DNA of 64,000 nucleotides from an uncultured Gemmatimonadaceae bacterium (lineage in GTDB: Bacteria > Gemmatimonadota > Gemmatimonadetes > Gemmatimonadales > Gemmatimonadaceae), in NCBI GenBank assembly GCA_963814345.1, contig CAWFCT010000022.1, positions 171,693-235,692 of the forward strand, read 5' to 3'. Positions 5,160 to 23,202 of this stretch are shown piece after piece. Position 1 is the stretch's first letter, and every line of letters begins with the position of its first letter. Below the pieces are notes generated by a model. The model did not search any database, had not been told where the DNA came from, and was given only the letters and a program-made list of their open reading frames with translations. The translations under genes were made by a program, and so were the position numbers.

Positions 5160-5160
5160 C

Positions 5161-6103: not shown

Positions 6104-6113
6104 CTCCCGGCTC

Positions 6114-7595: not shown

Positions 7596-8007
7596 GTCTG
7601 CCGAGCTACGGACGCTGCTGTTCCGTGTGGGGACCGTCGTGTACGGCTGCGACATCGCCGCCGTCCGCGAGATCGTCCCGGTCCGCGCGGCCACCCGGTT
7701 GCCGGGAACGCCTCCCTACGTGGACGGGCTGATCAACCTGCGGGGGACCATTCTCACGGTGATCGACCTGGGGGCGCGGATGGAGGGCCGCCGGTCGTCT
7801 GACGAGGAGGGCTCGGTGATCATCGTCCAGGTCGGGGGGCGCCACCTGGGCCTGGTGGTCGGCGACGTCATGGATGTGACGCTGATGCGGGTCGACCCAC
7901 CCCCCGAGGACCGGCGCGACGACGTGGTGCGGGGGCTGGGACATCTGGGCGACACAGTCGTCATAATAGTTGATATCCCGGTGTTGGTGGGGCAGGTGTT
8001 GCTTTGA
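7588..8007 (+). CDS. cheW: CheW-like coupling protein (CheW-1)
   Basis: CheW fold motifs: LLFRVGTVVYGCDIAAVREIV, PPYVDGLINLRGTILTVIDLG, IIVQVGGRHLGLVVGDV. I chose the ATG at 7588, which overlaps the rluD stop (ATGACTGA). Confidence 0.85.
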   Translation: MTESAELRTLLFRVGTVVYGCDIAAVREIVPVRAATRLPGTPPYVDGLINLRGTILTVIDLGARMEGRRSSDEEGSVIIVQVGGRHLGLVVGDVMDVTLMRVDPPPEDRRDDVVRGLGHLGDTVVIIVDIPVLVGQVLL

Positions 8008-8010
8008 CTT

Positions 8011-8038
8011 TCGGTAGGTCGGTAGGTCGGTAGGTCGG
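8011..8038 (+). repeat. Perfect tandem 8-mer (TCGGTAGG) x3.5, i.e. seven GG runs separated by 2 nt
   Basis: Read directly: tcggtaggtcggtaggtcggtaggtcgg. It starts 4 nt after the cheW-1 stop, in the only sizeable gap of the Che/Mgl cluster. Confidence 0.9.
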
Positions 8039-8154
8039 CGGCATGTCCGCCGCGCATCCCGACGGGTCGACCCACGGACACACCACCGGGGTCTCGGCAA
8101 GACCCAACGGGCGCATTGGGGCCCGCGACAGCTTGGTCCAGACAGGAGAGACAC

Positions 8155-8517
8155 GTGAGCCACACGGTGTTGATTTGCGACGATGCGATCTTCATGCGGA
8201 CGATGGTGGGAGACATCCTGCAGTCGGCCGGGTTCGAGATCGTGGGAGAGGCCGAGACGGGGCTGCAGGCGGTGGAGAAGTACAAGCAGCTGCGCCCCGA
8301 CCTCGTGACGATGGACATCGTGATGCCCGACATGGGCGGCATCGACGCCGTGCGAGAGATCATGCAGTTCGATTCGCAGGCGAAGATTCTCATGTGCAGC
8401 GCGATGGGGCAGCAGGCACTGGTGGTCGAGGCCATCCAGGCCGGGGCCAAGGACTTCGTCGTCAAGCCGTTCCAGCCTAGCCGCGTGCTCGAAGCCGTGC
8501 AGCGCGTTCTGAGATAG
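8155..8517 (+). CDS. cheY: CheY single-domain response regulator
   Basis: Motifs VLICDDAIFMR, phospho-acceptor context LVTMDIVMPDMGG, and AGAKDFVVKPF. I chose the GTG at 8155, preceded by AGGAGAG. The ORF-track start at 8116 would add a non-conserved N-terminal extension. Confidence 0.88.
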   Translation: MSHTVLICDDAIFMRTMVGDILQSAGFEIVGEAETGLQAVEKYKQLRPDLVTMDIVMPDMGGIDAVREIMQFDSQAKILMCSAMGQQALVVEAIQAGAKDFVVKPFQPSRVLEAVQRVLR

Positions 8518-8525
8518 TCGGAGCG

Positions 8526-10499
8526 TTGGATACCTCACCGTACGCCGAGCTATTTCTCACCGAAAGCCGCGAACACGTTTCGGCGGTGAATCACTGGCTG
8601 TTGGAGTTGGAGCGCGGCGCCGGTGGGGACGAGCCGGTCCGCGAGCTCTTCCGCGCGGTGCACACGGTGAAGGGGATGAGTGCCACGATGGGCTACGCCG
8701 TCGTGGCGGAATTGTCGCACGAGATGGAGACCCTGCTCGATCGGGTCCGGCACCGGACCATGGAGATCACGCCGGAGGTGATGGACGTGCTGTTTCGCGC
8801 CGCTGACGTGCTCGAACAAGCCGTGGAGGCGTCGGTGGCCGGACGGCTGGACGACGTGCATCCCGAGGGGGTGCTCGATCGGCTGCGGGCCATGGGGCGC
8901 GCCACGCCGCGCGCGTCGGCCGCGATCGCCAGGCTGCCGATGGACGAGCACCTGTGGACGGTGCCGGCCCCGGACGGCCAGGGCACGGTGGTGCGCGTAC
9001 GCCTGGTCCGCGAAGCGCCGCTGCGCGGCGTGCGGGCGTTCCTCATCGTGCAGGAACTCGGGGCGCTCGGCGCGGTCACCGGGGTGTCGCCATCGCTCGA
9101 GGCACTGCAGGGTGACCGGTTCGAGTTCGATTTCGCGGTGCGCGTGCAGACCAGGGTGGCGGCGCAGGAGATCGAGCGCGTCGTACGGGCCGCCGGCGAC
9201 GTGATGCTGGTGGCCGTCGAGGGCGCGCCCGGGTTCGGGGCCGCGCCGACGACGCCGGAGGATCGCCCCTCGGGGCTGCTCGCCGCCGTCGAGAGTGCGG
9301 ACGCCGAGGAGCCACCGGCGAACGGCGACGCGCCGGCGCCGCCGGCGGCGCCGATCCGGGCACCCCGCCACGTCCGGGTGGATCAGCGCCGCCTGGATGC
9401 CCTGATGAACCTGATCGGCGAACTGGTGATCGCTCGCGGCCGCCTGCTGCAGATCGGCGGACGGCTGGCCGATCCCGCGCTCGACGAGACGCTGGCGCAG
9501 GCATCGCGATTGATCGCCGATTTGCGCGACGAGATCGTGACGAGCCGCATGGTGCCCGTCTGGCAGGTGTTCGACCGGTTTCCGCGGCTGGTGCGCGACG
9601 CCGCCCGCGGGTTGGACAAGGAGATCGATTTCTCCATCGAGGGCAAGGACATCGAACTCGACCGGTCGATGCTCGACGAGATCGGCGATCCGATCGTGCA
9701 CCTGCTCCGGAACGCCGTGGACCACGGCGTTGAGGCCCCGGACGATCGCGAACGGCTGGGCAAGCCGCGGGCGGGGCGGCTCGTGCTCTCGGCGGTGCGC
9801 GATCGATCGGCGGTCGTCATCAAGGTGAGCGACGACGGGCGGGGCATCGACCGGGCGCGTGTGCTGGAGAAGGCGAAGGCGACGGGGGTCGTGGACGCGA
9901 GCCGGACCGACCTCAGTGACGAGGAACTGGTGCGGCTGGTCGCGCGCCCGGGGTTCTCGACGGCCGACCAGGTGACCGGGCTGTCGGGGCGGGGCGTGGG
10001 AGTGGACGCGGTGATCTCCCGCGTCAGGGCGCTGGGTGGTTCGGTGGACATCAAGACGCAGACGGGGCTCGGGACCACGGTCACCCTCCGGCTGCCCCTC
10101 ACGCTGGCCATTCTCCGCGCCCTGATGTCGCGGGTGGCGGACGAGGTCTACGCGGTGCCGATGGCGCACGTGTGCGAGACGGTGGAACTGGCGGCCGAAC
10201 GGCTCCGGACGCTGCGCGGCCGCGAGGTGTTCACGGTGCGAGACGACGTGTTGCCGCTCCTGCGGCTCCGTGACATCGTGGGCCTGCCCCGGCGCGAGGA
10301 GGATGCGCGAGAGCACGTCATCGTGCTGGAGTTGGCGGACCGGCGGGCCGGGCTGGTCGTGGATGGGCTGGCGGGGCAGCAGGAGATCGTAGTCAAGCAG
10401 TACGATCCGGTGCGGACACAGGTGCAGGCGTTCAGCGGCGCGACGATTCTCGGGGACGGCGCCCCGGCGCTGATCCTCGACGTGGGCAGTCTCTCCTGA
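8526..10499 (+). CDS. cheA: CheA histidine kinase (P1 Hpt, P3, P4 HATPase, P5 CheW-like; no receiver domain)
   Basis: Hpt motif HTVKGMSATMG, P3/P4 motifs HLLRNAVDHG, DDGRGID and GRGVGVD, and a C-terminal CheW-like domain. TTG start at 8526 after GGAG. Confidence 0.93.
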   Translation: MDTSPYAELFLTESREHVSAVNHWLLELERGAGGDEPVRELFRAVHTVKGMSATMGYAVVAELSHEMETLLDRVRHRTMEITPEVMDVLFRAADVLEQAVEASVAGRLDDVHPEGVLDRLRAMGRATPRASAAIARLPMDEHLWTVPAPDGQGTVVRVRLVREAPLRGVRAFLIVQELGALGAVTGVSPSLEALQGDRFEFDFAVRVQTRVAAQEIERVVRAAGDVMLVAVEGAPGFGAAPTTPEDRPSGLLAAVESADAEEPPANGDAPAPPAAPIRAPRHVRVDQRRLDALMNLIGELVIARGRLLQIGGRLADPALDETLAQASRLIADLRDEIVTSRMVPVWQVFDRFPRLVRDAARGLDKEIDFSIEGKDIELDRSMLDEIGDPIVHLLRNAVDHGVEAPDDRERLGKPRAGRLVLSAVRDRSAVVIKVSDDGRGIDRARVLEKAKATGVVDASRTDLSDEELVRLVARPGFSTADQVTGLSGRGVGVDAVISRVRALGGSVDIKTQTGLGTTVTLRLPLTLAILRALMSRVADEVYAVPMAHVCETVELAAERLRTLRGREVFTVRDDVLPLLRLRDIVGLPRREEDAREHVIVLELADRRAGLVVDGLAGQQEIVVKQYDPVRTQVQAFSGATILGDGAPALILDVGSLS

Positions 10500-10511
10500 G
10501 GGAGCATTTGC

Positions 10512-11132
10512 ATGGAAGAGCTTCATTCCCTGAAGGCGTTGCAGCTGGATGCCCTGCGCGAGGTGGCCAACATCGGCGCCGGGCACGCGGCAACGGCTCT
10601 CTCACAGATGGTCGGGGGCACGATCATGATCAGCGTGCCGCGCATCAACATCCAGCGACTCGACGCCATTGCGCCGATGGTGGCGGCCCCCGACGAGCCG
10701 GTCGCGGCGGTGCTGCTGCACATTCTGGGCGACCTGTCGGGCCGGACGCTCCTCGTGTTCCCGAAGGCGGCGGCGCTCCAGTTGGCCGAGGTGATGCTGC
10801 ACCGGCCGAGCGGGTCGTCGACGGAGCTCGGGGAACTGGAGCAGTCGGCGATCAAGGAAGCCGGCAACATTCTCAGCAGCGCGTACATGAACGCGCTCAG
10901 CGAATTCATGGGCATGCTCCTGCTGCCGTCGCCGCCGGCGCTGGCGGTGGACATGTCGGCCGCGGTCCTCACCACGGCCTATCTGCAGTTCGGCACGAGC
11001 CGGGATTACGTGTTCTGCGTGGAGAGCGACTTCATGCTCCAGGGCGAGGCGGACCGCCTGCGCGGCTTCTTCCTGCTGCTGCCCGACCCGGCATCGCTGC
11101 AGGCCATTCTGCGCGCCATTCGCGTGACGTGA
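10512..11132 (+). CDS. cheC: CheC-family CheY-P phosphatase
   Basis: Two copies of the (D/S)xxxExxN active-site motif: DALREVANIGAG and SAIKEAGNILSS. 206 aa. Confidence 0.8.
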   Translation: MEELHSLKALQLDALREVANIGAGHAATALSQMVGGTIMISVPRINIQRLDAIAPMVAAPDEPVAAVLLHILGDLSGRTLLVFPKAAALQLAEVMLHRPSGSSTELGELEQSAIKEAGNILSSAYMNALSEFMGMLLLPSPPALAVDMSAAVLTTAYLQFGTSRDYVFCVESDFMLQGEADRLRGFFLLLPDPASLQAILRAIRVT

Positions 11133-11133
11133 C

Positions 11134-13824
11134 ATGGCCGCTTCGTCCCCTGGTTCCGCCCACGACCGCGAGATTCTGAGGTCGTTTGCCCGACGCATCG
11201 ATCCGTCGGACGCCGGCGCGCACAACAACCTGGGGGTGTTGTACTTCAACAAGGGGCTGCACGAGGAAGCGGTGCAGGCCTTCATGCGGGCGCTGGAACT
11301 CGATCCCCGCATGGAAGTGGCCCAACGCAACCTCGAGATCGCCTATTTCAACACCGGCTACTACGACCGGCGCGTGCCCGAGCTGCAGGATCGGGTACGC
11401 CGCGAGCCGGCGGACCGGGACGCGCGGTGGGAGTTGGCCCGCACGTACGCCCTGCTCGGCGAGCATCAGCAGGCCGTGGACGAATTCTCGGCGCTGCTCG
11501 CCCACACGCCGGACGACGTGGGCGCGATCCTGCAGTTGGGGCTTGCCGAACGCGCGCTCGGCCACACCGAGCGGGCGCAGCAGTGGCTGGAGCGGGCGCG
11601 GGACCTCGACCCCGACAGTTCGCTGGTCCACTTCTATCTCGGCGAGGTGGCCTACAATCGCGGGCTCAACGACGACGCCCTGGCGTCGCTGGAAATGGCA
11701 CTGGCCCTCAATCCCGACAACTACGACGCCCTCTACCTGATGGGATTCGTGCTCGGCGACATGGGGCGGCAGGAGGAGGCCCGCGCGCTGACCAACCGTG
11801 CCATCAAGCTCAATCCCACGCTGTCGCGCGCGCAGGCGAATCTCTCCATCGACCAGAACAAGCCGGAGCGCTACGAGGCGTTGGTCGGCGGGCGCCGGTC
11901 GCATCGCATGGAGGTGTCCCCCGACGGCCAGTTGGCGCACTACAACCTCGGGCTCGCTTTCCGGCAGAAGGGGTACTACCCCGAGGCGCTGCGCGAATAC
12001 CGGCTCGCCCTCGACCGCGGCGAGGACGAGGACCTCGTGCGGCAGGCGATGGCCGAAGTCCACCTGGTGAGTGGCGACGTGAGCGGGGCGCTGGCGCTCT
12101 ACGACCGGCTCCTCGAGCGCATGCCCGCGAGCCCCAAGCTCTGGAACGAGCGCGGCGTGGCGCTGCACCAGGACGGGCGCGCGGCCGAGGCGGAGGAGAG
12201 CTATCGGCGGGCCATCGCCGCCGACCGGCGCTACGCGCTGGCCCACAACAACCTGGGAGTCGCGCTCGGCCAGTCGGGGGACGGGGATGCCGCGCTCGCC
12301 GAGTTCCGCGCCGCCCTGGATGCGCGTCCCGACCTCGTGAAGGCGCGGCTGAACCTCGCGCTGCTGCTCTACAAGGCCAAGCGGCTGCCGATGGCGCTCG
12401 AGGCATATCGCCAGGTGCTGGCCACCGAGCCGGAACACCCGGCGGCCTGGAACGGCGCCGGCGTGGTGCTCGCCGATTTTCACAAGTTCGAGGATGCGCG
12501 GAACGCCTTTGCGCGGGCCATCCAGGCCCGGCCGCAGTACGCGGAGGCGCACTACAACCTGAGCTTCTGTCTCTCGAATCTGGGCGATTTCGAGGGCGCG
12601 CTGCGCGAGACCAAACTGGCGCTGGAGATGGAGCCGTACTACATGGGGCAGAAGTTCGAGCTCGCCATCGACCTGCAGTACGAGGACCCGGATCTTTCCA
12701 TCCAGCCCGATCTGGGCGGTGAGGCCCATACCGCGGAGGCGATCGAGGCGTTCGACTTCGACGCCGGCCTGCTGGACTCCGTGTTCACGCAGCTGGCGCC
12801 GGCGCCGGGGCCGCTGCCGCCGGTGGAGACGGACCCGTACAAGATGGCGGCCGACTTCCTGTCCAAGGGGCTCGTCGAACGGGCCCAGATGGAGGTGCGG
12901 CGGGCGCTGGCCCAGGGCGCCGACTGCGTGGCCGGTAATGTGCTGCTCGGCCAGACGTTCATGCGACAGGGGGTGTACGGGGAGGCACTGGAGCGTTTCC
13001 GCGAAGCCCGCCGCGCGGCGCCCGACCACCCGATGGCGATGCACGGCGAGGCGCGCTGTCTGCTCAACCTGGGACAGGGCGCGGCGGCGCTGCCCCTCGT
13101 CGAGAAACTGGTGCTGCATGCCTCGGAGGACATCGACACGCTGATGCTCGCGGCCGGCGTCCGCGCCGCGGCGGGCGATCCCGCCGCCGCGCTGGCCACG
13201 CTCGACGCGGCCCGCCGCGTGGCGCCGATGCGGGCCGACGTGCATCGTGAGATGGGCGACATCGCGCGGCGGCTGGGCGACCTGGAAGGCGCGATCATCA
13301 ACTATCGCAACGCCCTGGCGCTCGATCCGCAGTTCGCCGGCGTGCGCTACGAACTGGCGCATCTGCTGATCGAGAAGCGACAGCTGGCGGCGGCGGAGTA
13401 CGAGTTGCTCTCCGCCCTGGAGACGGTGCCCACGTATGCGCAGGCCACGCTGGAGTTGGCCCGGCTGCGCCGTATGACCGGGCGGGCCGAATCGGCGCTG
13501 CCGCTGCTCATCGAACTCCTGCAGCGCGACCCGTACCACTTCGACGCCCTGATCGCCCTCGGGGAGACGCTCCTCGCGCTCGGGCGCAAGGAGGACGCGG
13601 TCACCGCGTTCGCCCGCGTGCTCCGCTTCGATCCCCACCATGTGGGCGCGCTCTACCACGAAGGCGTCCTGTTCGCCGAACGCCGTCACTTTCGAGAAGC
13701 CATCGACCGGTGGGAGCAGGTGCGCACGTTGGCGCCGGCCACCGAATACGCCCGCCGGGCCCGCCGCGAGATCCGCTCGGCCACCGACCTGCAACGCATC
13801 TTCGCTGAACGCGCAACCACCTGA
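11134..13824 (+). CDS. Large tetratricopeptide-repeat (TPR) protein, 896 aa
   Basis: TPR-like 34-aa repeats run end to end (e.g. AHNNLGVLYFNKGLHEEAVQAFMRALELDP, ALAHNNLGVALGQSGDGDAALAEFRAALDARP). No other domain was recognised. It starts 1 nt after the cheC stop. Confidence 0.8.
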   Translation: MAASSPGSAHDREILRSFARRIDPSDAGAHNNLGVLYFNKGLHEEAVQAFMRALELDPRMEVAQRNLEIAYFNTGYYDRRVPELQDRVRREPADRDARWELARTYALLGEHQQAVDEFSALLAHTPDDVGAILQLGLAERALGHTERAQQWLERARDLDPDSSLVHFYLGEVAYNRGLNDDALASLEMALALNPDNYDALYLMGFVLGDMGRQEEARALTNRAIKLNPTLSRAQANLSIDQNKPERYEALVGGRRSHRMEVSPDGQLAHYNLGLAFRQKGYYPEALREYRLALDRGEDEDLVRQAMAEVHLVSGDVSGALALYDRLLERMPASPKLWNERGVALHQDGRAAEAEESYRRAIAADRRYALAHNNLGVALGQSGDGDAALAEFRAALDARPDLVKARLNLALLLYKAKRLPMALEAYRQVLATEPEHPAAWNGAGVVLADFHKFEDARNAFARAIQARPQYAEAHYNLSFCLSNLGDFEGALRETKLALEMEPYYMGQKFELAIDLQYEDPDLSIQPDLGGEAHTAEAIEAFDFDAGLLDSVFTQLAPAPGPLPPVETDPYKMAADFLSKGLVERAQMEVRRALAQGADCVAGNVLLGQTFMRQGVYGEALERFREARRAAPDHPMAMHGEARCLLNLGQGAAALPLVEKLVLHASEDIDTLMLAAGVRAAAGDPAAALATLDAARRVAPMRADVHREMGDIARRLGDLEGAIINYRNALALDPQFAGVRYELAHLLIEKRQLAAAEYELLSALETVPTYAQATLELARLRRMTGRAESALPLLIELLQRDPYHFDALIALGETLLALGRKEDAVTAFARVLRFDPHHVGALYHEGVLFAERRHFREAIDRWEQVRTLAPATEYARRARREIRSATDLQRIFAERATT

Positions 13825-13826
13825 CC

Positions 13827-14969
13827 ATGGCGATCGAAGGCCCACTTCGCGAACTCGGCATTCACGACGTCTTCCAACTGCTCGATCTGAGCCGGAAGAC
13901 GGGCACGCTTCGCGTGCGGTCGGAGCTGCGGGATGACGAGGGGGTGGTGCACTTCGCCAACGGCCGCGTGGTGCACGCCGGCATTCGCAGTCTGCCGACC
14001 TCGCTGGAAGGCATCCTCGTGTCGGCGGGCCGCGTGAGCGAGGCCGACGTCCAGGCGGCGCGGGAGCTGGTGGGGCCCCGGGGAACGCCGGCCCAGCTCG
14101 CGGACGCCCTCGTGTCGAACGGGGCGGTGTCGCAGCGCGAAGTGGAACGGCAGGTGCGGCGGCAGATCGAGTCCGTCGTCTTCGAACTGATCTCGTGGCG
14201 CGAGGGATTCTTCTCGTTCGAAGAGGTGGCCGCGCCCGACCTGCCCGTGGACAGCCGGATCAGCGTTTCGACGGAATCCCTGCTCATGGAGGGGGCGCGG
14301 CGCATCGACGAGTGGTCGCGAATCGCGGACACGGTGCCCAACCTCCAGATGGTGCCCGTGTTCGCGACGGCCGATGATGGTCAGGGCGCGCAGCTCGATC
14401 TGCTGCCGCACGAGTGGGAAGTGCTGACGATGATCGATGGAACGCGCGACCTGCGGGGGATTGCCGGCGGGCTGGGGCGGAGCGAATTCGAGGTCGCCAA
14501 GATCGCCTACGGGCTGATCACCACCGGGGTGGTGGCGCTGGAGCCCCCGACGGCGATGCCGCGCGAGACCGAGGCGAGCCGCGAGGCCGGCGCCGAGGCG
14601 CTCCGCCGCGCGCGCGAGTCGCTGGCCTGCGGCGAGTACGCGGCGGCGCTCGAGGCGGGCCGGTCCGCGATCGAGACGCAGGGCACCGAGGCGCGGCTGG
14701 TGACGGCGCGCGCCCTCGTGAAATTGGAGCGCCATGCCGATGCCGCCGAGGAACTCCGGCGGGCCGTGTACGCCGATCCGCTCACGCCACGCGTACATCT
14801 CGATCTCGGATTCGCCGCCGTGAGCACGGGAGAGTTCGCCACGGCGCGCGCGAGTTGGGAGCACTTCCTGCGATTGGCCTCCGGTGGAGCCGACGCCGCC
14901 CGCGCCCGCTCGGCCCTGGACGCGCTGACCCGACTCATGAATCTGCTGGAGGCGCACGCCGATGGCTGA
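13827..14969 (+). CDS. PATAN (DUF4388) domain protein with C-terminal TPR region
   Basis: The N-terminus GPLRELGIHDVFQLLDLSRKTGTLRV...GVVHFANGRVVHA is the DUF4388/PATAN signature. The C-terminal third is TPR-like. Confidence 0.75.
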   Translation: MAIEGPLRELGIHDVFQLLDLSRKTGTLRVRSELRDDEGVVHFANGRVVHAGIRSLPTSLEGILVSAGRVSEADVQAARELVGPRGTPAQLADALVSNGAVSQREVERQVRRQIESVVFELISWREGFFSFEEVAAPDLPVDSRISVSTESLLMEGARRIDEWSRIADTVPNLQMVPVFATADDGQGAQLDLLPHEWEVLTMIDGTRDLRGIAGGLGRSEFEVAKIAYGLITTGVVALEPPTAMPRETEASREAGAEALRRARESLACGEYAAALEAGRSAIETQGTEARLVTARALVKLERHADAAEELRRAVYADPLTPRVHLDLGFAAVSTGEFATARASWEHFLRLASGGADAARARSALDALTRLMNLLEAHADG

Positions 14970-15819
14970 CGACATCCGGCGCTGGAGCGAGGAACTGGCG
15001 CGCGACCCGGGCAGCCTGGCGTTTCTGCTGCTCGGGGAGGCACTGCGCCGCCAGGGCGACCTGGAGACGGCGCAGCGTGTTGCCGTTCACGGGCTCAAGC
15101 GGCATCCGCACCACGCCGACGCGCACGACCTCCTGGCCCGCATCTACGCCGACCAGGGGCAGGTGGACCGGGCGGCGGAGGAGTGGGAGATGACGCTCCG
15201 CATGACGCCCGAGCATCCGGGAGCGCTCAAGGGGATGGCGTTCGTCTGCTTCCAGCGGCAGCAGTTCGAGGAAGCCGAAGACTACCTGCGTCGTGCGGCG
15301 CTGGGCGACGCGCCGGATTCCGGCATCCGCGCCGCCCTGGACACCGTGCGGCGCAACTCGACGACGGTCGACGCACCGGAGCTCGAGCCGGCGGTGGATG
15401 CGGAGGCCGATGCGGATCCCCAATTGGTGTTCGCGCGCATCCTCGAGACGGAAGACCGGACGGCGCTCCTGCTCGACGGATCGGGATTGGTGCTCGCCGG
15501 CGCCTACCTGACACCCGACGGTGACGACGTCGCGGCGGAGGTGGGCGCGCAACTGAGCGGCGTGTCGGAGGAAGCGGACCGTGCGACGCGGCATCTCGGT
15601 ATCGGTGAGTGGACGTCGATCGTGTTCGAGACGGAGGCCGCGGTGGTGGCCATGGCCCCGGCGGCGGAGGGCGGGCTGCTCGTGCTCGCCGCGTCGCGCG
15701 CGACGCCGCTGGGGTTGCTGCGGCGGCTGCTCGACCGGTGCGCCGAGCAGGCGCGCCGATGGATGGCGTGGCACGACGCGGGCGGGCCCGGCGCCGCGCG
15801 GCCAGGGGACGGCGCATGA
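14962..15819 (+). CDS. TPR + Roadblock/LC7 fusion protein
   Basis: TPR repeats occupy the N-terminal ~110 aa. The C-terminal ~110 aa (ETEDRTALLLDGSGLVLAGAY...EWTSIVFETEAAVVAMAPAAEGGLLVLAAS) has the Roadblock/LC7 (MglB-like) pattern. The start overlaps the previous stop by 8 nt. Confidence 0.7.
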   Translation: MADDIRRWSEELARDPGSLAFLLLGEALRRQGDLETAQRVAVHGLKRHPHHADAHDLLARIYADQGQVDRAAEEWEMTLRMTPEHPGALKGMAFVCFQRQQFEEAEDYLRRAALGDAPDSGIRAALDTVRRNSTTVDAPELEPAVDAEADADPQLVFARILETEDRTALLLDGSGLVLAGAYLTPDGDDVAAEVGAQLSGVSEEADRATRHLGIGEWTSIVFETEAAVVAMAPAAEGGLLVLAASRATPLGLLRRLLDRCAEQARRWMAWHDAGGPGAARPGDGA

Positions 15820-16163
15820 GTTCGCCGTTTCGGGAGATGCTGCATTCGCTCATGCGACTGCGTGGAGTGTTGGCCACCATGCTCGTGGACGAGCACGAGG
15901 GCATGATCATCGATTCGATTCTGCAGGTCGGTCAGGACGGCGACCGCGTGGCGGCCCTCGCCGCGTCGCTCCACCGCAAGGCGCGCAAGTCGGCCGAGGC
16001 GGCGGGGATGGGCGGCGTCTCGTACATGCAACTCGATGCGGCGGGCGGGCGGATCTGCGCGGCCGGGCGCGGCACGATGGTGCTGGTGGTCGTGGCGGCA
16101 CCCACCGCGAACATCGGTCTGGTGCGGGTGGAGACGCTCAAAGCCGTGCAGACGCTGCCATGA
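15816..16163 (+). CDS. Roadblock/LC7-domain protein (stand-alone; MglC-like candidate)
   Basis: I chose the ATG at 15816 (ATGA overlap). 115 aa: LRGVLATMLVDEHEGMIIDS...MVLVVVAAPTANIGLVRVE. The ORF-track start at 15609 is an out-of-context extension that overlaps the upstream gene. Confidence 0.75.
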   Translation: MSSPFREMLHSLMRLRGVLATMLVDEHEGMIIDSILQVGQDGDRVAALAASLHRKARKSAEAAGMGGVSYMQLDAAGGRICAAGRGTMVLVVVAAPTANIGLVRVETLKAVQTLP

Positions 16164-16636
16164 CCATCCGCGTCGTCGAACCCTGGGTCGAAGCGCCGCT
16201 GAAGCGATTCGTGGACGATGCTCGCGTGACCATCGCCCTGTTGTTGCTGCCGAGCGGTCAGGTGCTCGCGGAGCACGGGTTCACCCGGTCGCTCGACGTC
16301 GCCGCGGCCTGCGCGCTCGCGGCCGCCATCCACGCGTCGGGGGGCGAACTGGGCCGGATGCTCGACGGCCGGCCCTTCAGTGGGCTGCACCATGCGGGCC
16401 AGGACCGCCAGATCTTCCTGGGCGAGGCGCGGACGCCGCGGGGTACGTACATTTTCCTGACCGTCTTCGATCAGGAAAGCTCACTCGGGCTCGTTCGGCT
16501 GTATTTTGACGAATTCGTGGCGAACCTGAGTGCCGCGGCCCCCGAAGGCGGCGGCGCCTCCTCCGACACCGTTCTCGCCGACACCTTCGAGCGGGATCTC
16601 AACCGCAACCTGGCCGCGTTGTTCGGTCGGGGCTGA
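16160..16636 (+). CDS. mglB: MglB, the Roadblock/LC7 GTPase-activating partner of MglA
   Basis: I chose the ATG at 16160 (ATGA overlap). TVFDQESSLGLVRLYFDEF closely matches the Myxococcus MglB motif VIFDNRTSLGLVRLRIKK as I recall it. It sits immediately upstream of mglA, as in the mglBA operon. Confidence 0.8.
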   Translation: MTIRVVEPWVEAPLKRFVDDARVTIALLLLPSGQVLAEHGFTRSLDVAAACALAAAIHASGGELGRMLDGRPFSGLHHAGQDRQIFLGEARTPRGTYIFLTVFDQESSLGLVRLYFDEFVANLSAAAPEGGGASSDTVLADTFERDLNRNLAALFGRG

Positions 16637-16656
16637 CCTCCACCTCCCATCGCTCC

Positions 16657-17262
16657 GTGCCGCTCGTCAACTACGCCACCCGCGAGATCACCTGCAAGAT
16701 CGTCTATTACGGACCCGGCCGGTCCGGAAAGACGACCAACTTGCATCACATCTACGGGCAGGTGCCGGAAGACCGGAAGGGGAAGATGGTGTCGCTGGCG
16801 ACGCAGACCGACCGCACCCTGTTCTTCGATTTCCTGCCGCTCGACCTCGGCACCATTTCGGGGTTCACCACCAAGTTCCAGCTCTACACGGTGCCGGGGC
16901 AGGTGTACTACCAGTCCACGCGGAAGCTGGTGCTGCAGGGGGCGGACGGCGTGGTGTTCGTGGCGGACAGCCAGACGCGCCAGCTCGACGAGAACATCGA
17001 GAGCTTTCAGGACCTGCACGCCAACCTGGCGGATCAGGGCGTCGACGTGCGCGCGGTGCCCCTCGTGCTCCAGTACAACAAGCAGGATCTGCCGCGCGAT
17101 CTGATCATGGCCACCGAGGAGCTGCGGGACGCGATCAACTTTCGCGGCGTTCCCGATTTTCCGGCCGATGCCCTGCACGGCCCGGGCGTGTTCGAGACCC
17201 TGCGTGGCATCTCCGAACTCGTGCTGAAGCGGCTGAGTTCTCCCTCACGTGCGGCGAGGTAG
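16657..17262 (+). CDS. mglA: MglA, Ras-like polarity/motility GTPase
   Basis: Similarity to MglA runs the full length: NYATREITCKIVYYGPGRSGKTTNL, TDRTLFFDFLPL, LYTVPGQVYY, GVVFVADSQ, QYNKQDLP. GTG start at 16657. Confidence 0.92.
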   Translation: MPLVNYATREITCKIVYYGPGRSGKTTNLHHIYGQVPEDRKGKMVSLATQTDRTLFFDFLPLDLGTISGFTTKFQLYTVPGQVYYQSTRKLVLQGADGVVFVADSQTRQLDENIESFQDLHANLADQGVDVRAVPLVLQYNKQDLPRDLIMATEELRDAINFRGVPDFPADALHGPGVFETLRGISELVLKRLSSPSRAAR

Positions 17263-17265
17263 CGC

Positions 17266-19224
17266 GTGTCGTTGGACACCCGGATGCGGTTCGAGCACTT
17301 CGAGGCGGGCGCGGCCAATCACGAGGCCGTGTCCGCGGGGCGCGCCGTCGCCCGATCGCCGGGGCAGAAGCACAACCCGCTCACCTTCTTCGGGGTAACG
17401 GGAGTCGGCAAGACGCATCTGATGCAGGCCATCGGCCATGCCGTGGTGGAGGCCCAGCCGGCGCTGCGCGTGGAGTATCAGACGGCGGACGAATTCGCGA
17501 AGCAGCTCCACGCCGCCGTCGCCGCCAGCCAGACCGACGAGTACATCCGGGGATGGGCGCGGGTGGACGTCCTGCTGCTGGATGACATTCAGGGGCTCGC
17601 CGACCAGCGTGAGGCGCAGTCGGAACTGCTGCGGCTACTCGAGGCGATGCAGAGCATGGAGCGCCAGGTGGTGATGACCTGCGATCGTCCGCCGGCCGAG
17701 ATCGCCGGGTTCGATCCCGCCCTGGTCTCGCGGATCGCCGGCGGCCGGATCGTGGAGATCGGCGCGCCCGACGCCGCGACGCGCGTGGCGATTCTCCGGG
17801 CGCGGTGCCGGGAGCGGGACGTGATCCTGGAGCCGGGCGTGGTGGAGGAGATCGGGCGCATCGAGACCGGCAACGTGCGCGAGCTGCACGGACTGCTCCA
17901 TCGCATCGTCGACTTCCAGTCGCTGGGCGACGAGCCGGTGCACGCCGACGACGTGCTGACTCTGCTCGACCACGCGCCCGAAGCGCGGGCGGCAGCGGGC
18001 GACTCGGCGCCGTCCGCGGCCACGGGTGCCCTCGATTTCGAGAGCTTCCTCACCGACATCGCGAGCGCCGTGACGGCGCACGTCGAAGGGTGGAAGTCGC
18101 ACGTGGCCGAGGCCGTGGCGGGGTGGCAGTCGGCGGGGTACCGCACCAAGGCGCTGGAGCGGTTGTTGGACGAACCGTCGCCCCCGCCCAACTACGAGGC
18201 CGTGCTGCGCGGCTTCGGCGCCACGGTTCGCCGGCTCAAGGAGCTGGAGTCCGAAGCCGTCGAGGCCGATCCGTCGGTGGCCGGCCACGACGTGTTCCGC
18301 GACCCCGAGCGCATGCGCGAAGCCGAGGCCATGGTGCAGCGTGCGCGGGCGGGCGCCGTGGACCTGCCCGGCCCCTCGGTGGAGTTCTCGCGCGCCGGGT
18401 TGGAGGTCGGCAAGTCGAATCAGGCGGCCGTGCGTGCGGCCGACGCCGTGGCGGCCGAACCGGGCAGCCGGTACAACCCCCTCGTCATCATCGGTCCCGA
18501 GGGGACGGGAAAGACGCACCTGCTCAACGCGCTGGGGCACGAACTGGTGAACGCCAGTGGAGGCGCGACCGTGGTGGCGTGCGTGACCGGCCAGCAGTTC
18601 GCCGACGAGTTCATCGCCGCCCTGCGCGACGGGACGCTCAACCAGTGGCGCCGGCGGTACCGGCGCGTGGACGCGCTGCTGATGGACGACCTCCAGGCGG
18701 TGGCCGGCAAGGAGCGCACCCAGGACGAGGTGTTCGAACTGTTCGGTGACCTGCTCGACGCCGGCAAGCAGATCGCGTGCACCGCGGCGCAGTTGCCCCG
18801 GGACATGACCGGCCTCGACGAGCGGCTCCGCGTGCGGTTCGAGGGTGGGCTCGTGGTGGAGTTGGCGCCGCCGGACGTCGCGATGCGCGAGCAGTTGTAC
18901 CGGCGGTTCCTGGACGGGGTGGCGGCCGATCAACTCGACCCGCTGGCGCGCTATCTCGCGTCCCGGCCCGCCGCGGGCGTGCCCGACATCATCGACACGA
19001 TCCATCGCCTGTCCGTATCGGCCGATGCGGTGGGGGCGCCGCTGTCGTTGGACGTGGCGCGGCGGGAACTCGAGGGGCCGGAGCCCGTGGCCGCCCCGAT
19101 GCCGACGCCGGCGAGCGCCGCCCCGGTGGTGCGGGCGGCCAGTGACATGTTCTTCCTCGACGACGAGAAAGTGGTCTGGGAGTTGCGCGACGTCGCGTCG
19201 CGCGTGGTCGAGGAGCTGGGCTAG
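17266..19224 (+). CDS. Protein with two tandem DnaA/Hda-type AAA+ ATPase modules and no DnaA domain IV
   Basis: Module 1 (aa ~8-215): F.HFEAG.AN, NPLTFFGVTGVGKTHLMQAIG, VLLLDDIQ, TCDRPP, NVRELHG. Module 2 (aa ~375-560): NPLVIIGPEGTGKTHLLNALG, ALLMDDLQAVAGKERTQDEVF, GKQIACTAAQLP, LRVRFEGGLVVEL. No DnaA-box-binding helix-turn-helix is present. GTG start at 17266. Confidence 0.8.
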   Translation: MSLDTRMRFEHFEAGAANHEAVSAGRAVARSPGQKHNPLTFFGVTGVGKTHLMQAIGHAVVEAQPALRVEYQTADEFAKQLHAAVAASQTDEYIRGWARVDVLLLDDIQGLADQREAQSELLRLLEAMQSMERQVVMTCDRPPAEIAGFDPALVSRIAGGRIVEIGAPDAATRVAILRARCRERDVILEPGVVEEIGRIETGNVRELHGLLHRIVDFQSLGDEPVHADDVLTLLDHAPEARAAAGDSAPSAATGALDFESFLTDIASAVTAHVEGWKSHVAEAVAGWQSAGYRTKALERLLDEPSPPPNYEAVLRGFGATVRRLKELESEAVEADPSVAGHDVFRDPERMREAEAMVQRARAGAVDLPGPSVEFSRAGLEVGKSNQAAVRAADAVAAEPGSRYNPLVIIGPEGTGKTHLLNALGHELVNASGGATVVACVTGQQFADEFIAALRDGTLNQWRRRYRRVDALLMDDLQAVAGKERTQDEVFELFGDLLDAGKQIACTAAQLPRDMTGLDERLRVRFEGGLVVELAPPDVAMREQLYRRFLDGVAADQLDPLARYLASRPAAGVPDIIDTIHRLSVSADAVGAPLSLDVARRELEGPEPVAAPMPTPASAAPVVRAASDMFFLDDEKVVWELRDVASRVVEELG

Positions 19225-19225
19225 C

Positions 19226-20842
19226 ATGGCCATCAAGGGCAGCTTGAAGGAGGCCAGCCTCCCCGACGTGCTCCAACTCCTGGCGATGGGCCGGAAGACC
19301 GGATGCCTGAGCGTCAACCACCGGACGAATTTCGGCTACATCTATTTCGACAAGGGGCGCATCTCGTACGCGTCGATCGTGAACCGGCGCGACCGCTTGG
19401 GCGACATGCTGGTGAAGAACGGCATCATCTCCGCCGAGCAGCTCAAGTCGGCCATCGAGGCGCAGGATCAGGAGCGCGAGCGGCGCATCGGCGAGCTGCT
19501 GGTGGAGATGGGCTTCCTGTCGCGCGACGCGCTGCGCCAGCACATCCGCGAGCAGATCGAGGAGGCGGTGTACTTCCTGTTCACCTGGAATCAGGGCTCG
19601 TTCAACTTCGAGGCCGACGTCCAGCCGGACGAGCAGGAATTCCTGGTGTCGATCAATCCCGAGTCGCTGCTGCTCGAGGGCGCGCGACGCGTGGACGAGT
19701 GGACGCTCGTCGAGAAGAAGATCCCCACGTTCGACATCGTGTTCGAGGTCGACCGGCCGAAGATCCTGGCCAGCGACCTCGATCTGACGCCGGAGCAGCG
19801 GGGGCTGCTGGAGCTGGTCGACGGCCGGCGCGACGTGCAGCAGATCATCGACGCCTCGGGCATGGGCGAGTTCGAAGTGGGGAAGGTGCTGTACGGCCTC
19901 GCCACCACCGGATTTCTGCACCGCATCGGCACGTCGAAGGCGGGCGACGCCCAGGTGTCGGAAGCCCGGGTACAGGAGCATTACAACCTCGGCGTCGCGT
20001 TCTACAAGACGGGGATGTTCGACGAAGCGGTGCGCGAGTTCCGGCGCGTGATGGACCTCAAGCCCAACGATCCCTCGGCGCAGTTCTACCTCGGGCTCGT
20101 GCAGCTGCGCCAGGAACGGTGGCACGATGCGCTGGCGACGTTCGAGGCCGCGGTAGCGCGCCCCGGCGCCACCGCTGCGGTGTATCACAACCTCGCGTAC
20201 GCGCTCGAACGGTTGGGGCGCCTGGCCGAGGCGCAGCGGGCGCTGCAGGAGGCGTCGGCCCGCAGCCACGGGGCGAGCCCGCAGATCGAAACCTCGATCG
20301 GCATCGTCGCCCTACGCTCCGGCGACCTGGCGGCGGCCGATGAGGCGCTGACGGCCGCGCGCCCGTTGTGGTCCCGGGCACCGTCATCGGCCTGGTATCA
20401 CTACGCGGCACTCACGGCGGCCCTGCTCGGCGACCTCGCGCGGGCGCAGACCATTCTCGACGAAGCCGTGGGCGCGCATCCGCACAGCGCCGTGCTCTAC
20501 AACAATCTTGCCGTGGTGCGCGAACGCCAGAACGCCGGTGAGGCGGCGGCGGCGGCGCTCGACCGGGCGCTGTCGGAGGATCCCTCCGTGCCGCAGGTGC
20601 ACAAGAACCTCGGCGACGTGGCCTACCGCGCCGGGCGGTTCGACGAGGCGCTCGAGTCGTACCAGCGCGCCGTCAAAGCGAAGCCGGATCTCGGGGACGA
20701 CGTCTACCTCAAGCTCGGCAACATCAAGTTCCGCCAACAGCAGAAGGAGGAGGCGCTGCGGCTCTGGCAGCGCGCGCTCGAACTCGATCCGACCAACGCC
20801 ATCGTGCGTACCAACCTCGACGCCGTGCGGCAGGCGCTCTGA
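19226..20842 (+). CDS. PATAN (DUF4388) domain protein with long C-terminal TPR region (second paralog)
   Basis: I chose the ATG at 19226. The N-terminus GSLKEASLPDVLQLLAMGRKTGCLSV...GYIYFDKGRISYA is the PATAN signature. TPR repeats run from about aa 250 to the end. The ORF-track start at 18845 overlaps the upstream gene. Confidence 0.78.
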   Translation: MAIKGSLKEASLPDVLQLLAMGRKTGCLSVNHRTNFGYIYFDKGRISYASIVNRRDRLGDMLVKNGIISAEQLKSAIEAQDQERERRIGELLVEMGFLSRDALRQHIREQIEEAVYFLFTWNQGSFNFEADVQPDEQEFLVSINPESLLLEGARRVDEWTLVEKKIPTFDIVFEVDRPKILASDLDLTPEQRGLLELVDGRRDVQQIIDASGMGEFEVGKVLYGLATTGFLHRIGTSKAGDAQVSEARVQEHYNLGVAFYKTGMFDEAVREFRRVMDLKPNDPSAQFYLGLVQLRQERWHDALATFEAAVARPGATAAVYHNLAYALERLGRLAEAQRALQEASARSHGASPQIETSIGIVALRSGDLAAADEALTAARPLWSRAPSSAWYHYAALTAALLGDLARAQTILDEAVGAHPHSAVLYNNLAVVRERQNAGEAAAAALDRALSEDPSVPQVHKNLGDVAYRAGRFDEALESYQRAVKAKPDLGDDVYLKLGNIKFRQQQKEEALRLWQRALELDPTNAIVRTNLDAVRQAL

Positions 20843-21666
20843 TGACGATCGCCGAGCCGCAGGACGAGGAGTTTCAGGCGCTGCTCGACAAGATCTCGCG
20901 CGATCGCGGCTTCCACTGCGCCAGCTACAAGGCGACCTGCCTGCGCCGCCGGGTCGGGGTGCGCATGCGGGCACGCGGGCTGCACCGCTACGTGGATTAC
21001 GCGGGTCTGCTCGACGCCGACCTGGGGGAATACGACCTGCTGCTCGATGCGTTGACGATCAACGTCACGAAGCTGTTCCGGAACCCCGAGGTGTACCACG
21101 CCATGCTGCGCGACGTGGTCCCCGCGGTGTGGGCAGCGGCCCCGTCCCGCATTCGCGTGTGGAGCGCCGGGTGCGCGTCGGGCGAGGAGCCGTATTCGCT
21201 GGCCGCCCTGTTCCACCTGCACGCGGCGGCGCGGGGCGAACTCCACCGCCTGCCGCGCGTGGAGATTCTGGGCACCGACATCGACCGTCGCAGTCTCGTG
21301 GCGGCCGAGCGCGGCGAGTTCGAGGAGCGCGATTTCAGCGAGACACCCGAGGCCTGGCGGTCGGCCTATTTCGCGCCCGCGGCGCCGTTCACGGTGGTCC
21401 CCGAGTTGCGCCGGCTGGTGAAGTTCCGGCAACATGATCTGTTGCGCGAGCCCCCGCCGCAGGGCGGGCACGACTTGATCGTGTGCCGAAATGCGATCAT
21501 CTACTTCGATCGGGCGTCGCAGGAGCGGCTGTTCGAATCCTTCTACTCGGCGTTGGCCCCCGGAGGGTTCCTGGTACTCGGTAAGGTGGAAACGCTTTTC
21601 GGTCGTGCGCGGCAGTTGTTCCGCCCCGTAGACGCCCGCGAACGGATCTTCGTGCGCCCCGCATGA
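20842..21666 (+). CDS. cheR: CheR chemotaxis protein methyltransferase
   Basis: N-terminal CheR helical domain (YKATCLRRRVGVRMR) plus a SAM-binding domain (RVWSAGCASGEEPYSLA, ILGTDID, DLIVCRNAIIYF). Confidence 0.9.
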   Translation: MTIAEPQDEEFQALLDKISRDRGFHCASYKATCLRRRVGVRMRARGLHRYVDYAGLLDADLGEYDLLLDALTINVTKLFRNPEVYHAMLRDVVPAVWAAAPSRIRVWSAGCASGEEPYSLAALFHLHAAARGELHRLPRVEILGTDIDRRSLVAAERGEFEERDFSETPEAWRSAYFAPAAPFTVVPELRRLVKFRQHDLLREPPPQGGHDLIVCRNAIIYFDRASQERLFESFYSALAPGGFLVLGKVETLFGRARQLFRPVDARERIFVRPA

Positions 21667-22145
21667 GCGAACAACGGGTCGGGATCGCCGATCTCGCGGT
21701 CGCCGCGGGGGAGGGAACGCTCTGCACGCTCGGGCTCGGCTCCTGCGTCGCGATCGTGCTCTACGACGCGGTGGTGCGGGTGGGCGGGCTGGCGCACGTC
21801 CTGTTGCCCGAACCGGCCATGTCGCGCCTGCACGACAACCCGGCGCGCTTCCCGGAGACCGCCGTGCCCGCCCTCGTCGCGCGGATGCGGGAGCTCGGCG
21901 CCGACCCGGCCCGGATGACGGCCCGCCTCGTCGGCGGGGCCAGCATGTTCTCCAGCCTGCTGCCCCGCGGCGCGCCGACGATCGGCGGGCGAAACGTGGA
22001 TGCCTCGCGGCAGGCGCTGCAGCGAGCCGGCATCACGATCGCGGGCGAGGACGTGGGCATGGAGCATGGGCGCAGCGTCTACCTGCACATCGCCGACGGC
22101 CAGGTCGAAGTGCGCTCGCTCGCGCGAGGGAGTCGTGTCCTCTAA
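21663..22145 (+). CDS. cheD: CheD chemoreceptor glutamine deamidase
   Basis: 160 aa. The GLGSCVAIVLYD motif contains the catalytic Cys. ATGA overlap with cheR. Confidence 0.85.
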   Translation: MSEQRVGIADLAVAAGEGTLCTLGLGSCVAIVLYDAVVRVGGLAHVLLPEPAMSRLHDNPARFPETAVPALVARMRELGADPARMTARLVGGASMFSSLLPRGAPTIGGRNVDASRQALQRAGITIAGEDVGMEHGRSVYLHIADGQVEVRSLARGSRVL

Positions 22146-23202
22146 GCCCTCCGTCCTGGTGGTGGACGATAGCGCGCTCATGCGGCGCGTGATCGCAGAG
22201 CTGGTCACCGAATCGGAGGAGTTCACCGTGGTCGGCGTGGCGCGCAACGGGCGGGAGGCGATTGCGCGCGTGCAGGCGCTCAACCCCGACCTCGTGACAC
22301 TCGACATCGAGATGCCGGAGATGGACGGGCTGCAGGCGCTGGCGCAGATCATGCGCGATGCCCCCCGCCCGGTGGTGATGCTGAGCGGGGCCGAGACCAT
22401 GGATGGGCGCGACGCCGCGCTACGCGCGCTCGAACTCGGCGCCGTGGACTTCGTGCGCAAGCCGTCGGGCCCGATCAGTCTGGACCTCGCCGTCGTGGGC
22501 GAGCGGTTGCGCGGCGCGCTCCGAGCCGCCGCGCAGGCGAACCTGCGCGGCCTGCAGACGCCGGTGCGAAGCCCCGGGGCGCCCCGCCGTGGGCCAGGCC
22601 GGCCGGCGGCGTCCCGCCCCACGCGCGCCGTGGCGATCGCGGCCTCGACCGGCGGCCCGCGCGCCCTCACGCAGGTCCTGCCGGGGCTGCCGGCTGCGCT
22701 CGACGCCGCGGTGTTCGTGGTGCAACACATGCCCGCTGGATTCACGCGCAGCCTGGCGCAGCGGCTCGACGCGATGGGGCCGCTGCCCGTGCACGAGGCC
22801 GAGGCGGGCCAGGTCGTCCGCAGCGGGCATGTATACGTGGCGCCCGGCGGCAAGCACATGCGCGTGGCCGACGACGCCCAACCGGTGATCGTGCTCGACG
22901 AGACGCCGCCCGTGTGGGGCGTGCGACCGGCCGCCGATCCCCTCTTCCGGTCGGTGGCCGCCGTGTTCGGCGACCGGTGTGTAGGCGTGGTGCTCACCGG
23001 CATGGGACGCGACGGCGCCGACGGGCTGCGGGCCATCCGCGATGCGGGGGGCCGCCGCGTCGTGCAGGACCGGGACAGCTCGATCATCTACGGCATGCCG
23101 CACGCCGCGCTGGAGGCAGCGGGCGCCGACCGCGTGGCGCCGCTGGCGAGCGTCGCGGCCGCTGTCGTCGCGCTGCTCGCCACGGTGGGTGAGCCGGCAT
23201 GA
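22135..23202 (+). CDS. cheB: CheB protein-glutamate methylesterase (REC + esterase)
   Basis: I chose the GTG at 22135, after GAGGGAG. REC domain: VLVVDDSALMR, LVTLDIEMPEMDG. Esterase domain: AIAASTGGP, VVQHMP, VVLTGMGRDG. Confidence 0.9.
   Translation: MSSKPSVLVVDDSALMRRVIAELVTESEEFTVVGVARNGREAIARVQALNPDLVTLDIEMPEMDGLQALAQIMRDAPRPVVMLSGAETMDGRDAALRALELGAVDFVRKPSGPISLDLAVVGERLRGALRAAAQANLRGLQTPVRSPGAPRRGPGRPAASRPTRAVAIAASTGGPRALTQVLPGLPAALDAAVFVVQHMPAGFTRSLAQRLDAMGPLPVHEAEAGQVVRSGHVYVAPGGKHMRVADDAQPVIVLDETPPVWGVRPAADPLFRSVAAVFGDRCVGVVLTGMGRDGADGLRAIRDAGGRRVVQDRDSSIIYGMPHAALEAAGADRVAPLASVAAAVVALLATVGEPA

Follow-up and report, generated by a model that had tools for sequence, protein, structure and literature searches.

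A TPR-Roadblock fusion and two further Roadblock genes next to an mglA paralogue in a chemosensory gene cluster of Gemmatimonadota

Three Roadblock genes and an mglA paralogue

The window analysed here, a 64,000-nt stretch (~70% G+C) of contig CAWFCT010000022.1 (positions 171,693 to 235,692; assembly GCA_963814345.1), comes from an uncultured Gemmatimonadaceae bacterium. Within a chemosensory (Che) gene cluster, it contains four successive plus-strand genes, which encode a fusion of tetratricopeptide repeats (TPR) with a Roadblock/LC7 domain (TPR-Rbl), a stand-alone Roadblock/LC7 protein (Rbl), a divergent MglB-type Roadblock protein (MglB2) and an MglA-type GTPase (MglA2) (Table 1). An earlier note on this DNA, made from the sequence alone, had proposed these four open reading frames (ORFs), with two additional Roadblock genes, one of them fused to TPR, linked by ATGA overlaps directly upstream of mglB. 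The ORF listing and the raw sequence bear out the coordinates and frames, and Pfam bears out the domains. The start/stop ATGA overlaps lie at 15816 (fusion/Rbl) and 16160 (Rbl/MglB2), whereas the fusion start overlaps the stop of the preceding PATAN-TPR gene by 8 nt of a different sequence (ATGGCTGA). Between the mglB2 stop and the mglA2 start there are 20 nt, which places an MglB gene within four genes of mglA, as in Group 1 MglA systems.

Both proteins encoded upstream of mglB2 score as Roadblock/LC7, as the earlier note had supposed, and both exceed the Pfam gathering score of 23 bits. In the fusion, the TPR span approximately residues 20-125, and Robl_LC7 is matched over 166-243 with 35.2 bits (E 1.1e-8); for Rbl, the Robl_LC7 score is 34.5 bits (E 1.8e-8). 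The AlphaFold2 model of the fusion, based on an alignment of 22 orthologues (A1), has a mean predicted local distance difference test score (pLDDT) of 85 and consists of a helical TPR domain (1-136), a disordered variable linker (137-146) and an α/β Roadblock domain (~150-272). In the latter, the motifs GAxLSG on helix α2 and TPLGLxRRLLxRC on α3 are invariant across A1. When the whole fusion model was compared with the PDB using Foldseek, TPR proteins dominated the matches and a Roadblock protein first appeared at rank 28; the match to the Prometheoarchaeum Roadblock3 homodimer (9jue_B) has E 2.9e-5 and a template modelling (TM) score of 0.78 over 115 columns. For the profile of the fusion C-terminal domain, the matches to Roadblock proteins and to Thermus MglB were no more than marginal (0.0045-0.14). 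The Rbl model (pLDDT 94.4) has the topology α1-β1-β2-α2-β3-β4-β5-α3, and its best Foldseek matches include an Asgard Roadblock (TM 0.84), LAMTOR2 in Ragulator (0.83), M. xanthus MglB (0.79) and a Streptomyces Roadblock. Against PDB sequences, the Rbl profile matched 7yh1_D at 2e-9, dynein LC7 at 1e-5 and MglB at 0.07, the Rbl family being by this measure closer to Asgard Roadblocks and dynein LC7 than to MglB. The predicted α-β-β-α-β-β-β(-α) folds, matched to solved Roadblock dimers with TM of 0.78-0.84, likewise place both extra proteins in the Roadblock/LC7 superfamily (PF03259).

MglA2 is a close relative of Myxococcus MglA, as had been noted before: phmmer matched it to the M. xanthus MglA structures with E 1e-73 (57% identity) and to Thermus MglA with 2e-65, and Pfam yielded weak Arf/Ras matches. 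The alignments contain the P-loop GPGRSGKT, TDRTLFFDF, YTVPGQ and NKQD, corresponding to the Group 1 signatures, namely, the P-loop GxxxxGKT, the intrinsic arginine finger (R53 equivalent), a threonine in place of the Ras aspartate and the catalytic glutamine in G3, and NKxD. Judging by these motifs, MglA2 is predicted to be catalytically complete. MglB2 carries the previously noted SLGLVRL motif, within SSLGLVRLYF, and a conserved C-terminal FERDLNRNLAALFGR segment. Its Robl_LC7 score of 18.7 bits is under the 23-bit cut-off, and its assignment as an MglB relative comes through its likeness to solved M. xanthus MglB (6h5b_B, 6izw_B, 6hjm_A; phmmer E 8e-8, residues 11-117) and not through the Pfam threshold. 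With the M. xanthus MglB core MglB2 shares 30% identity, and with the second MglB of its own genome, MglB1, 29%.

Profile-profile comparison puts a wide distance between all three Roadblock families (hhalign P only 0.004-0.01), MglB2 being as far from each of the extra Roadblocks as those two are from each other, and they are therefore ancient, specialised paralogues as opposed to redundant copies. A recent tandem duplication of mglB was ruled out by these weak hhalign matches together with the separate conservation of each family in two classes. In each family, the most conserved stretches are helix α2 (VAALAAS, GAxLSG and ACALAA) and, where α3 begins, the GL(V/L)R motif. In MglB, the α2 face binds MglA, and the arginine of GLVRL (R115) is part of the MglC-binding surface (PMC10329633).

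The four genes belong to a co-directional string that begins with cheW, cheY, cheA, cheC and the genes for an 896-aa TPR protein and PATAN-TPR 1, continues through TPR-Rbl, Rbl, MglB2 and MglA2, and extends to a tandem DnaA-type AAA+ protein, PATAN-TPR 2, cheR, cheD, cheB, an AAA_22 ATPase, two cheW genes, a further TPR protein, a peptidase and rsmH. The Che cluster of the window (7531-25128) encodes CheR, CheD, CheB and several CheW proteins and contains no gene for a methyl-accepting chemotaxis protein (MCP). Six MCP-signal matches were found in the genome, all of them outside this cluster, with the nearest located ~170 kb upstream on the same contig.

The whole genome (4.32 Mb, 22 contigs) contains five Roadblock matches and two MglA genes. 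A second mglBA pair resides on contig C9 (L001, C9:111000-122000; 5524-6099 and 6114-6791), right after dnaX-ybaB-recR. MglB1 from this pair contains VLFDNRTTLGLVRLKMK, and its identity to the M. xanthus MglB core is 47%, versus 30% for MglB2. M. xanthus MglA and MglA2 share 61% and 52% identity, respectively, with MglA1, which contains, relative to both, a 33-residue insertion before the last helix. The more Myxococcus-like pair on C9 rules out the window pair as the main or only MglA/MglB of the cell. Thus, the earlier identification of an MglA/MglB module stands, but the window pair is a second, Che-embedded paralogue pair and not the main one. There are also two Che systems, one on contig C13, with an MCP gene and close to fliG, and the other, without an MCP gene, in the window. 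A role of the window module in flagellar chemotaxis is unlikely, given the separate CheA/R/B/D set with an MCP near fliG. Together, the separate canonical mglBA pair and the separate flagellar Che system indicate that the window module is an additional, dedicated switch embedded in its own Che cluster.

Table 1. Genes of the Roadblock-MglA module and of the surrounding Che cluster (window coordinates)
Feature	Position	Strand	Basis
cheW, cheY, cheA, cheC (upstream half of the Che cluster)	7531..11132	+	Pfam
896-aa all-TPR protein, candidate scaffold/effector comparable to SgmX	11134..13824	+	Pfam TPR families; synteny kept
PATAN(DUF4388)-TPR protein 1, immediately 5' of the fusion	13827..14969	+	Pfam DUF4388 E 6e-30 and TPR
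TPR-Roadblock fusion (TPR-Rbl), 285 aa	14962..15819	+	Pfam TPR families and Robl_LC7
Stand-alone Roadblock/LC7 protein (Rbl), 115 aa	15816..16163	+	Pfam Robl_LC7
MglB2, divergent MglB-type Roadblock protein, 158 aa	16160..16636	+	phmmer to M. xanthus MglB
MglA2, Group-1-type MglA GTPase, 201 aa	16657..17262	+	phmmer to M. xanthus MglA
Tandem DnaA-type AAA+ protein, immediately 3' of mglA	17266..19224	+	Pfam Bac_DnaA, two stretches, E 8.5e-88
PATAN(DUF4388)-TPR protein 2	19232..20842	+	Pfam DUF4388 E 3e-40 and TPR
cheR, cheD, cheB, AAA_22 ATPase, two cheW (downstream half of the Che cluster)	20842..25128	+	Pfam

Conservation and phyletic distribution

A scan of one genome per species identified 242 relatives of the fusion, and synteny was read in the best 80 loci, all from Gemmatimonadota. 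The gene order CheC, TPR, PATAN1, TPR-Rbl, Rbl, MglB, MglA, DnaA-like, PATAN2, CheR is retained in 80/80 of these loci wherever the contig allows, with a DnaA-like gene after mglA in almost every one. The full order is also kept in further families and orders within the class Gemmatimonadetes. All three Roadblock genes are under purifying selection: in comparisons with four relatives, the ratio of nonsynonymous to synonymous substitution rates (dN/dS) ranged over 0.06-0.26 in the fusion gene, 0.06-0.21 in Rbl and 0.03-0.11 in MglB2, and did not exceed 0.10 in MglA2. With the same order in every locus and dN/dS of 0.03-0.26, the four-gene arrangement is far beyond chance.

In sequence databases, relatives of the fusion form more than 120 clusters (56-95% identity), many of them labelled COG2018 in IMG, and all those with an organism name come from Gemmatimonadota. 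A profile of the fusion Roadblock domain retrieved 308 representatives (E ≤0.001) among 1.84 billion; the match is almost always C-terminal in proteins of 260-470 aa, the long ones consisting of TPR and Robl_LC7 with longer linkers. Every organism-named match again belongs to Gemmatimonadota, class Longimicrobia included, where Longimicrobium and Longimicrobiaceae, among them the cultured Longimicrobium terrae, form a divergent clade. A Longimicrobium contig contains the same string, with 4-nt overlaps linking the three Roadblock genes.

In the locus of Longimicrobium sp. DATIND010000156.1 (L092, 9700-11790), two genes of 60 and 216 aa, with no Pfam match on record, lie between mglA and the gene for the DnaA-type ATPase, which in Longimicrobium is a single-module protein of 391 aa, compared to the tandem protein of 652 aa in the window. 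A search for a single-chain TPR-Rbl::Rbl fusion that could serve as Rosetta-stone evidence yielded only P0144 and P0196, neither of which is usable. In P0144 (metagenome, 424 aa), one gene call joins TPR-Rbl, a Gly-rich stretch and the beginning of the neighbouring Roadblock protein, representing either a real fusion or a missed stop, and it is unusable as fusion evidence because the protein ends early; P0196 is a frame-scrambled gene call.

The co-occurrence profiling suggested in the earlier note was performed on 301 genomes sampled across the phylum, with MglB2 counted on strong matches. The Roadblock domain of the fusion is represented in 176 of the 301 genomes and is thus not rare, Rbl is found in 181 and MglB2 in 176, and all three genes are present in 169. 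TPR-Rbl and Rbl essentially always co-occur, with the genes adjacent and in the same order in every listed place, and none of the 301 genomes encodes the fusion without any partner; most of the discordant genomes are near the score threshold or involve a contig end. This constant pairing of two different Roadblock proteins is the pattern of a heterodimeric pair, LAMTOR-like or of the two-MglB kind.

There are two departures from the trio. Six genomes from five genera (G140, G173, G277, G287 and the g6 genomes G050 and G237, which we count here) encode a duo, TPR-Rbl and Rbl without MglB2. For instance, locus L085 (G050:C2:69500-83500; 4905-7811, minus strand) contains PATAN1, TPR-Rbl (264 aa), Rbl (122 aa) and MglA. 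The other five genomes show this pattern by whole-genome search, and throughout the duo genomes both TPR-Rbl and Rbl diverge more than is usual within the family. By contrast, genera g8 (Gemmatimonas) and g12 (L084) retain CheC, TPR, PATAN1, MglA2, DnaA-like and PATAN2, with no Roadblock gene. In the single-contig g8 genome G067 (4,636,964 bp), presumably that of Gemmatimonas aurantiaca T-27, MglA2 comes directly after PATAN1 (L083, C1:1684500-1698500; 6965-8736), all three Roadblock genes being absent. A census of MglA systems published in 2015 lists for G. aurantiaca the arrangements 'MglB>MglA>' at GAU_1115 and 'PATAN>MglA>-PATAN>' at GAU_1409 (Table S2 in PMC4316618). In that census no MglB stands beside the GAU_1409 paralogue, which fits its model strain having apparently lost the Roadblock genes.

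A possible second Roadblock layer and its alternatives

Co-occurrence, adjacency, translational coupling and the mutual divergence of TPR-Rbl and Rbl suggest that the two proteins act together. Roadblock proteins function as dimers, and heterodimers are known, as in LAMTOR, or have been proposed, as in two-MglB systems, so that a heterodimer would be the simplest form of such a pair. The four genes may accordingly constitute a translationally coupled sub-operon for a dedicated small-GTPase switch with two layers of Roadblock regulators. By homology, an MglB2 dimer would bind MglA2-GTP and stimulate its GTPase activity. TPR-Rbl and Rbl, as an obligate pair and most likely a Roadblock heterodimer resembling LAMTOR2/3 or two-MglB systems, would form the second layer and dock on MglB2 and/or MglA2, functionally like MglC or Ragulator. 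The TPR arm could anchor this platform within the Frz-like, receptor-gene-free cluster, with CheY or the TPR and PATAN-TPR proteins as its partners; a fusion that links GTPase regulators to TPR scaffolds is the most economical reading. The TPR repeats of SgmX bind MglA-GTP (PMC11580455), and a direct contact between the TPR arm and MglA2 is therefore also possible. Che signalling could then relocate or gate GTPase regulation, probably for a type IV pilus or another pole-specific behaviour. We favour this reading, an obligate TPR-Rbl/Rbl second layer regulating MglB2/MglA2 on the scaffolds of the cluster, tentatively, since taken as a whole it is somewhat more apt to fail in one of its parts than to hold; the extra Roadblocks, which occur without MglB2 in the duo lineages, need not act on the side of the GTPase-activating protein (GAP).

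Several observations weigh against the second-layer reading. The six genomes that keep the pair without MglB2 imply that docking on MglB2 cannot be its sole role, and the retention of MglA2 in lineages devoid of cluster Roadblocks indicates that the switch can run without them or use MglB1 in trans. The pilus output rests on analogy and on pilus ATPases encoded elsewhere in the genome, and can be suggested only in that sense. Furthermore, although MglC structures exist in the PDB (PMC10329633), no chain named MglC was found for Rbl among PDB sequence matches to E 10 (single sequence) or E 1 (profile) or among the top 50 Foldseek matches, and none was present among the profile matches of the fusion C-terminal domain. 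Orthology of the 115-aa Rbl with MglC is thus unsupported by sequence, profile and Foldseek matches, and on these comparisons the extra Roadblocks are not demonstrable members of the MglC family.

The duo lineages, in which the pair has a role independent of MglB2, keep alive a different possibility, namely, that TPR-Rbl/Rbl is itself the GAP, or a RomY-like co-GAP, of MglA2, binding MglA2-GTP on a two-helix face, with MglB2 as an accessory or alternative subunit. In the six genomes from five genera with TPR-Rbl, Rbl and MglA2 and no MglB2, Rbl ends ~40 nt before mglA; both extra proteins have small-residue motifs on α2; and Group 3 MglA systems with two different MglB genes per MglA are known (PMC4316618). 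However, MglB2 is present in 169 of the ~175 carriers and is better conserved, the Rbl proteins are nearer to LC7 and Asgard Roadblocks than to MglB, and MglB1 may still be encoded elsewhere in the duo lineages, on analogy with weak matches to the alignment of the MglB2 family (A4) in other genomes. We consider a GAP or co-GAP function of the pair unlikely, if still the alternative to be taken most seriously. The pair could also stand on the activating side, as a Ragulator-like exchange factor or recruitment platform that opposes MglB2 and fills the role of RomR/RomX. Eukaryotic Roadblock/Longin dimers are more often platforms for guanine nucleotide exchange factors (GEFs) (PMC13408092), the Rbl model resembles LAMTOR2, and no gene of the cluster was identified as RomR or RomX, no search having been aimed at them. 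Nevertheless, nothing points to such an activity directly, the likeness to LAMTOR2 is no greater than that to other Roadblocks, and GEF-like activity has been reported for MglB itself (PMC11016934), so that a separate GEF may be unneeded; an activating role seems quite improbable. Least credence is due to the idea that the extra Roadblocks act not on MglA2 but on the tandem DnaA-type AAA+ protein or the AAA_22 ATPase, or are simple scaffold subunits. The Roadblock superfamily has been implicated in the regulation of nucleoside triphosphatases generally (Koonin and Aravind 2000, cited in PMC4316618), and almost every locus has the DnaA-like gene after mglA. Yet PATAN1 on one side and mglB/mglA on the other always flank the Roadblock genes, whose translation is coupled to that of mglB, lineages that have lost the Roadblocks retain the DnaA-like gene unchanged, and in Longimicrobium the Roadblock trio is unchanged despite a single-domain DnaA-like protein and two inserted genes.

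A more far-reaching form of the second-layer reading would make TPR-Rbl:Rbl a bacterial counterpart of Ragulator, stacking on the MglB2 dimer in a manner switched by the nucleotide state of MglA2, with the TPR arm directly receiving the Che output (CheY~P or PATAN-TPR). We regard this as decidedly unlikely; if true, the operon would encode a complete, hard-wired link from a chemosensory phosphorelay to a GTPase polarity switch, a link only partly mapped in Myxococcus.

Known systems and other Roadblock and pilus genes of the genome

The protein family behind this locus is well known; the arrangement, which is real and conserved, is undescribed. The earlier note knew of no TPR-Roadblock fusion as part of an MglA module; in agreement with this, no description of such a fusion was found in the literature searched, and the same holds for a Roadblock trio inside a Che cluster. 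What is already in print are several MglB genes per MglA, PATAN neighbours and receiver-Roadblock fusions (PMC4316618).

The closest parallel is the M. xanthus module of MglA, MglB and MglC with RomR/RomX, RomY and Frz. Shared features are a Group-1 MglA with the arginine finger and glutamine, an MglB gene directly upstream, extra Roadblock protein(s) beside the GAP, TPR proteins in the pathway (SgmX in M. xanthus) and a chemosensory system distinct from the other Che system of the genome, which here is flagellar-adjacent. Unlike in M. xanthus, all components at the present locus are encoded in one gene string inside a Che cluster; there are two extra Roadblocks, one fused to TPR, instead of one, neither with detectable sequence similarity to MglC; and MglB2 and M. 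xanthus MglB share only ~30% identity. The genome has, in addition, a separate canonical mglBA pair. Genetic evidence has been reported for Frz acting on MglA/MglB through RomR (PMC4316618). The role of MglC was worked out only in 2023: an MglC dimer is sandwiched between RomR and two MglB dimers, a contact broken by MglA-GTP, and the authors compare this arrangement with Rag/Ragulator, proposing that GTPase-controlled stacking of Roadblock dimers is ancient and shared (PMC10329633). As in Ragulator, in which stacked LAMTOR2/3 and LAMTOR4/5 dimers underlie the Rag GTPases, several Roadblocks would here serve one small GTPase, and the Rbl model superposes on LAMTOR2 (TM 0.83). However, orthology is lacking at the sequence level, the GTPase itself carries no Roadblock domain, and a heterodimer is suggested here by strict co-occurrence only.

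Two-MglB systems, which occur in Group 3 and in a small part of Group 1 (Wuichet and Sogaard-Andersen 2015), likewise couple more than one Roadblock gene to one mglA, and for part of Group 1, PATAN domains were noted in the gene neighbourhood; the census differs in recording no TPR-Roadblock fusion. In Response_reg-Roadblock fusions and the actinobacterial conservon protein CvnB, Roadblock domains also accompany signalling domains and an MglA-family GTPase, by fusion or as neighbouring genes, but the partner domain (receiver or histidine kinase there, TPR here), the GTPase group and the phylum are different.

Against this background, the locus offers a natural, operon-encoded case of one GTPase with three distinct Roadblocks, one of them equipped with a protein-interaction arm, set between Che genes. 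It may represent layered Roadblock control of a small GTPase by a set that spans two classes and is missing from the model species. The distribution amounts to a natural deletion series, with the trio in most lineages, the duo in six genomes from five genera, and no Roadblock gene in Gemmatimonas and one other genus; this series provides comparative and biochemical handles, and a cultured carrier, Longimicrobium terrae, exists. It also corrects the picture drawn from the 2015 census, in that the cultured model species sampled there appears to have lost the Roadblock genes.

The fifth Roadblock/LC7 gene of the genome (135 aa; best solved relative CvnB5, E 3e-6) is located on contig C18 (L002, C18:345000-356000; 5192-5599). 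No GTPase was identified among the neighbouring ORFs scanned, and a single-domain response-regulator gene (5603-6019) lies directly 3' of it. Seven T2SSE-type ATPases are encoded in the genome. At C10:111592-114530, a weak PATAN-like match (31% identity over 86 residues to PATAN-TPR 2) adjoins genes for PilT-like and PilB-like ATPases, which hints that PATAN proteins are connected to the pilus motor in the source genome.

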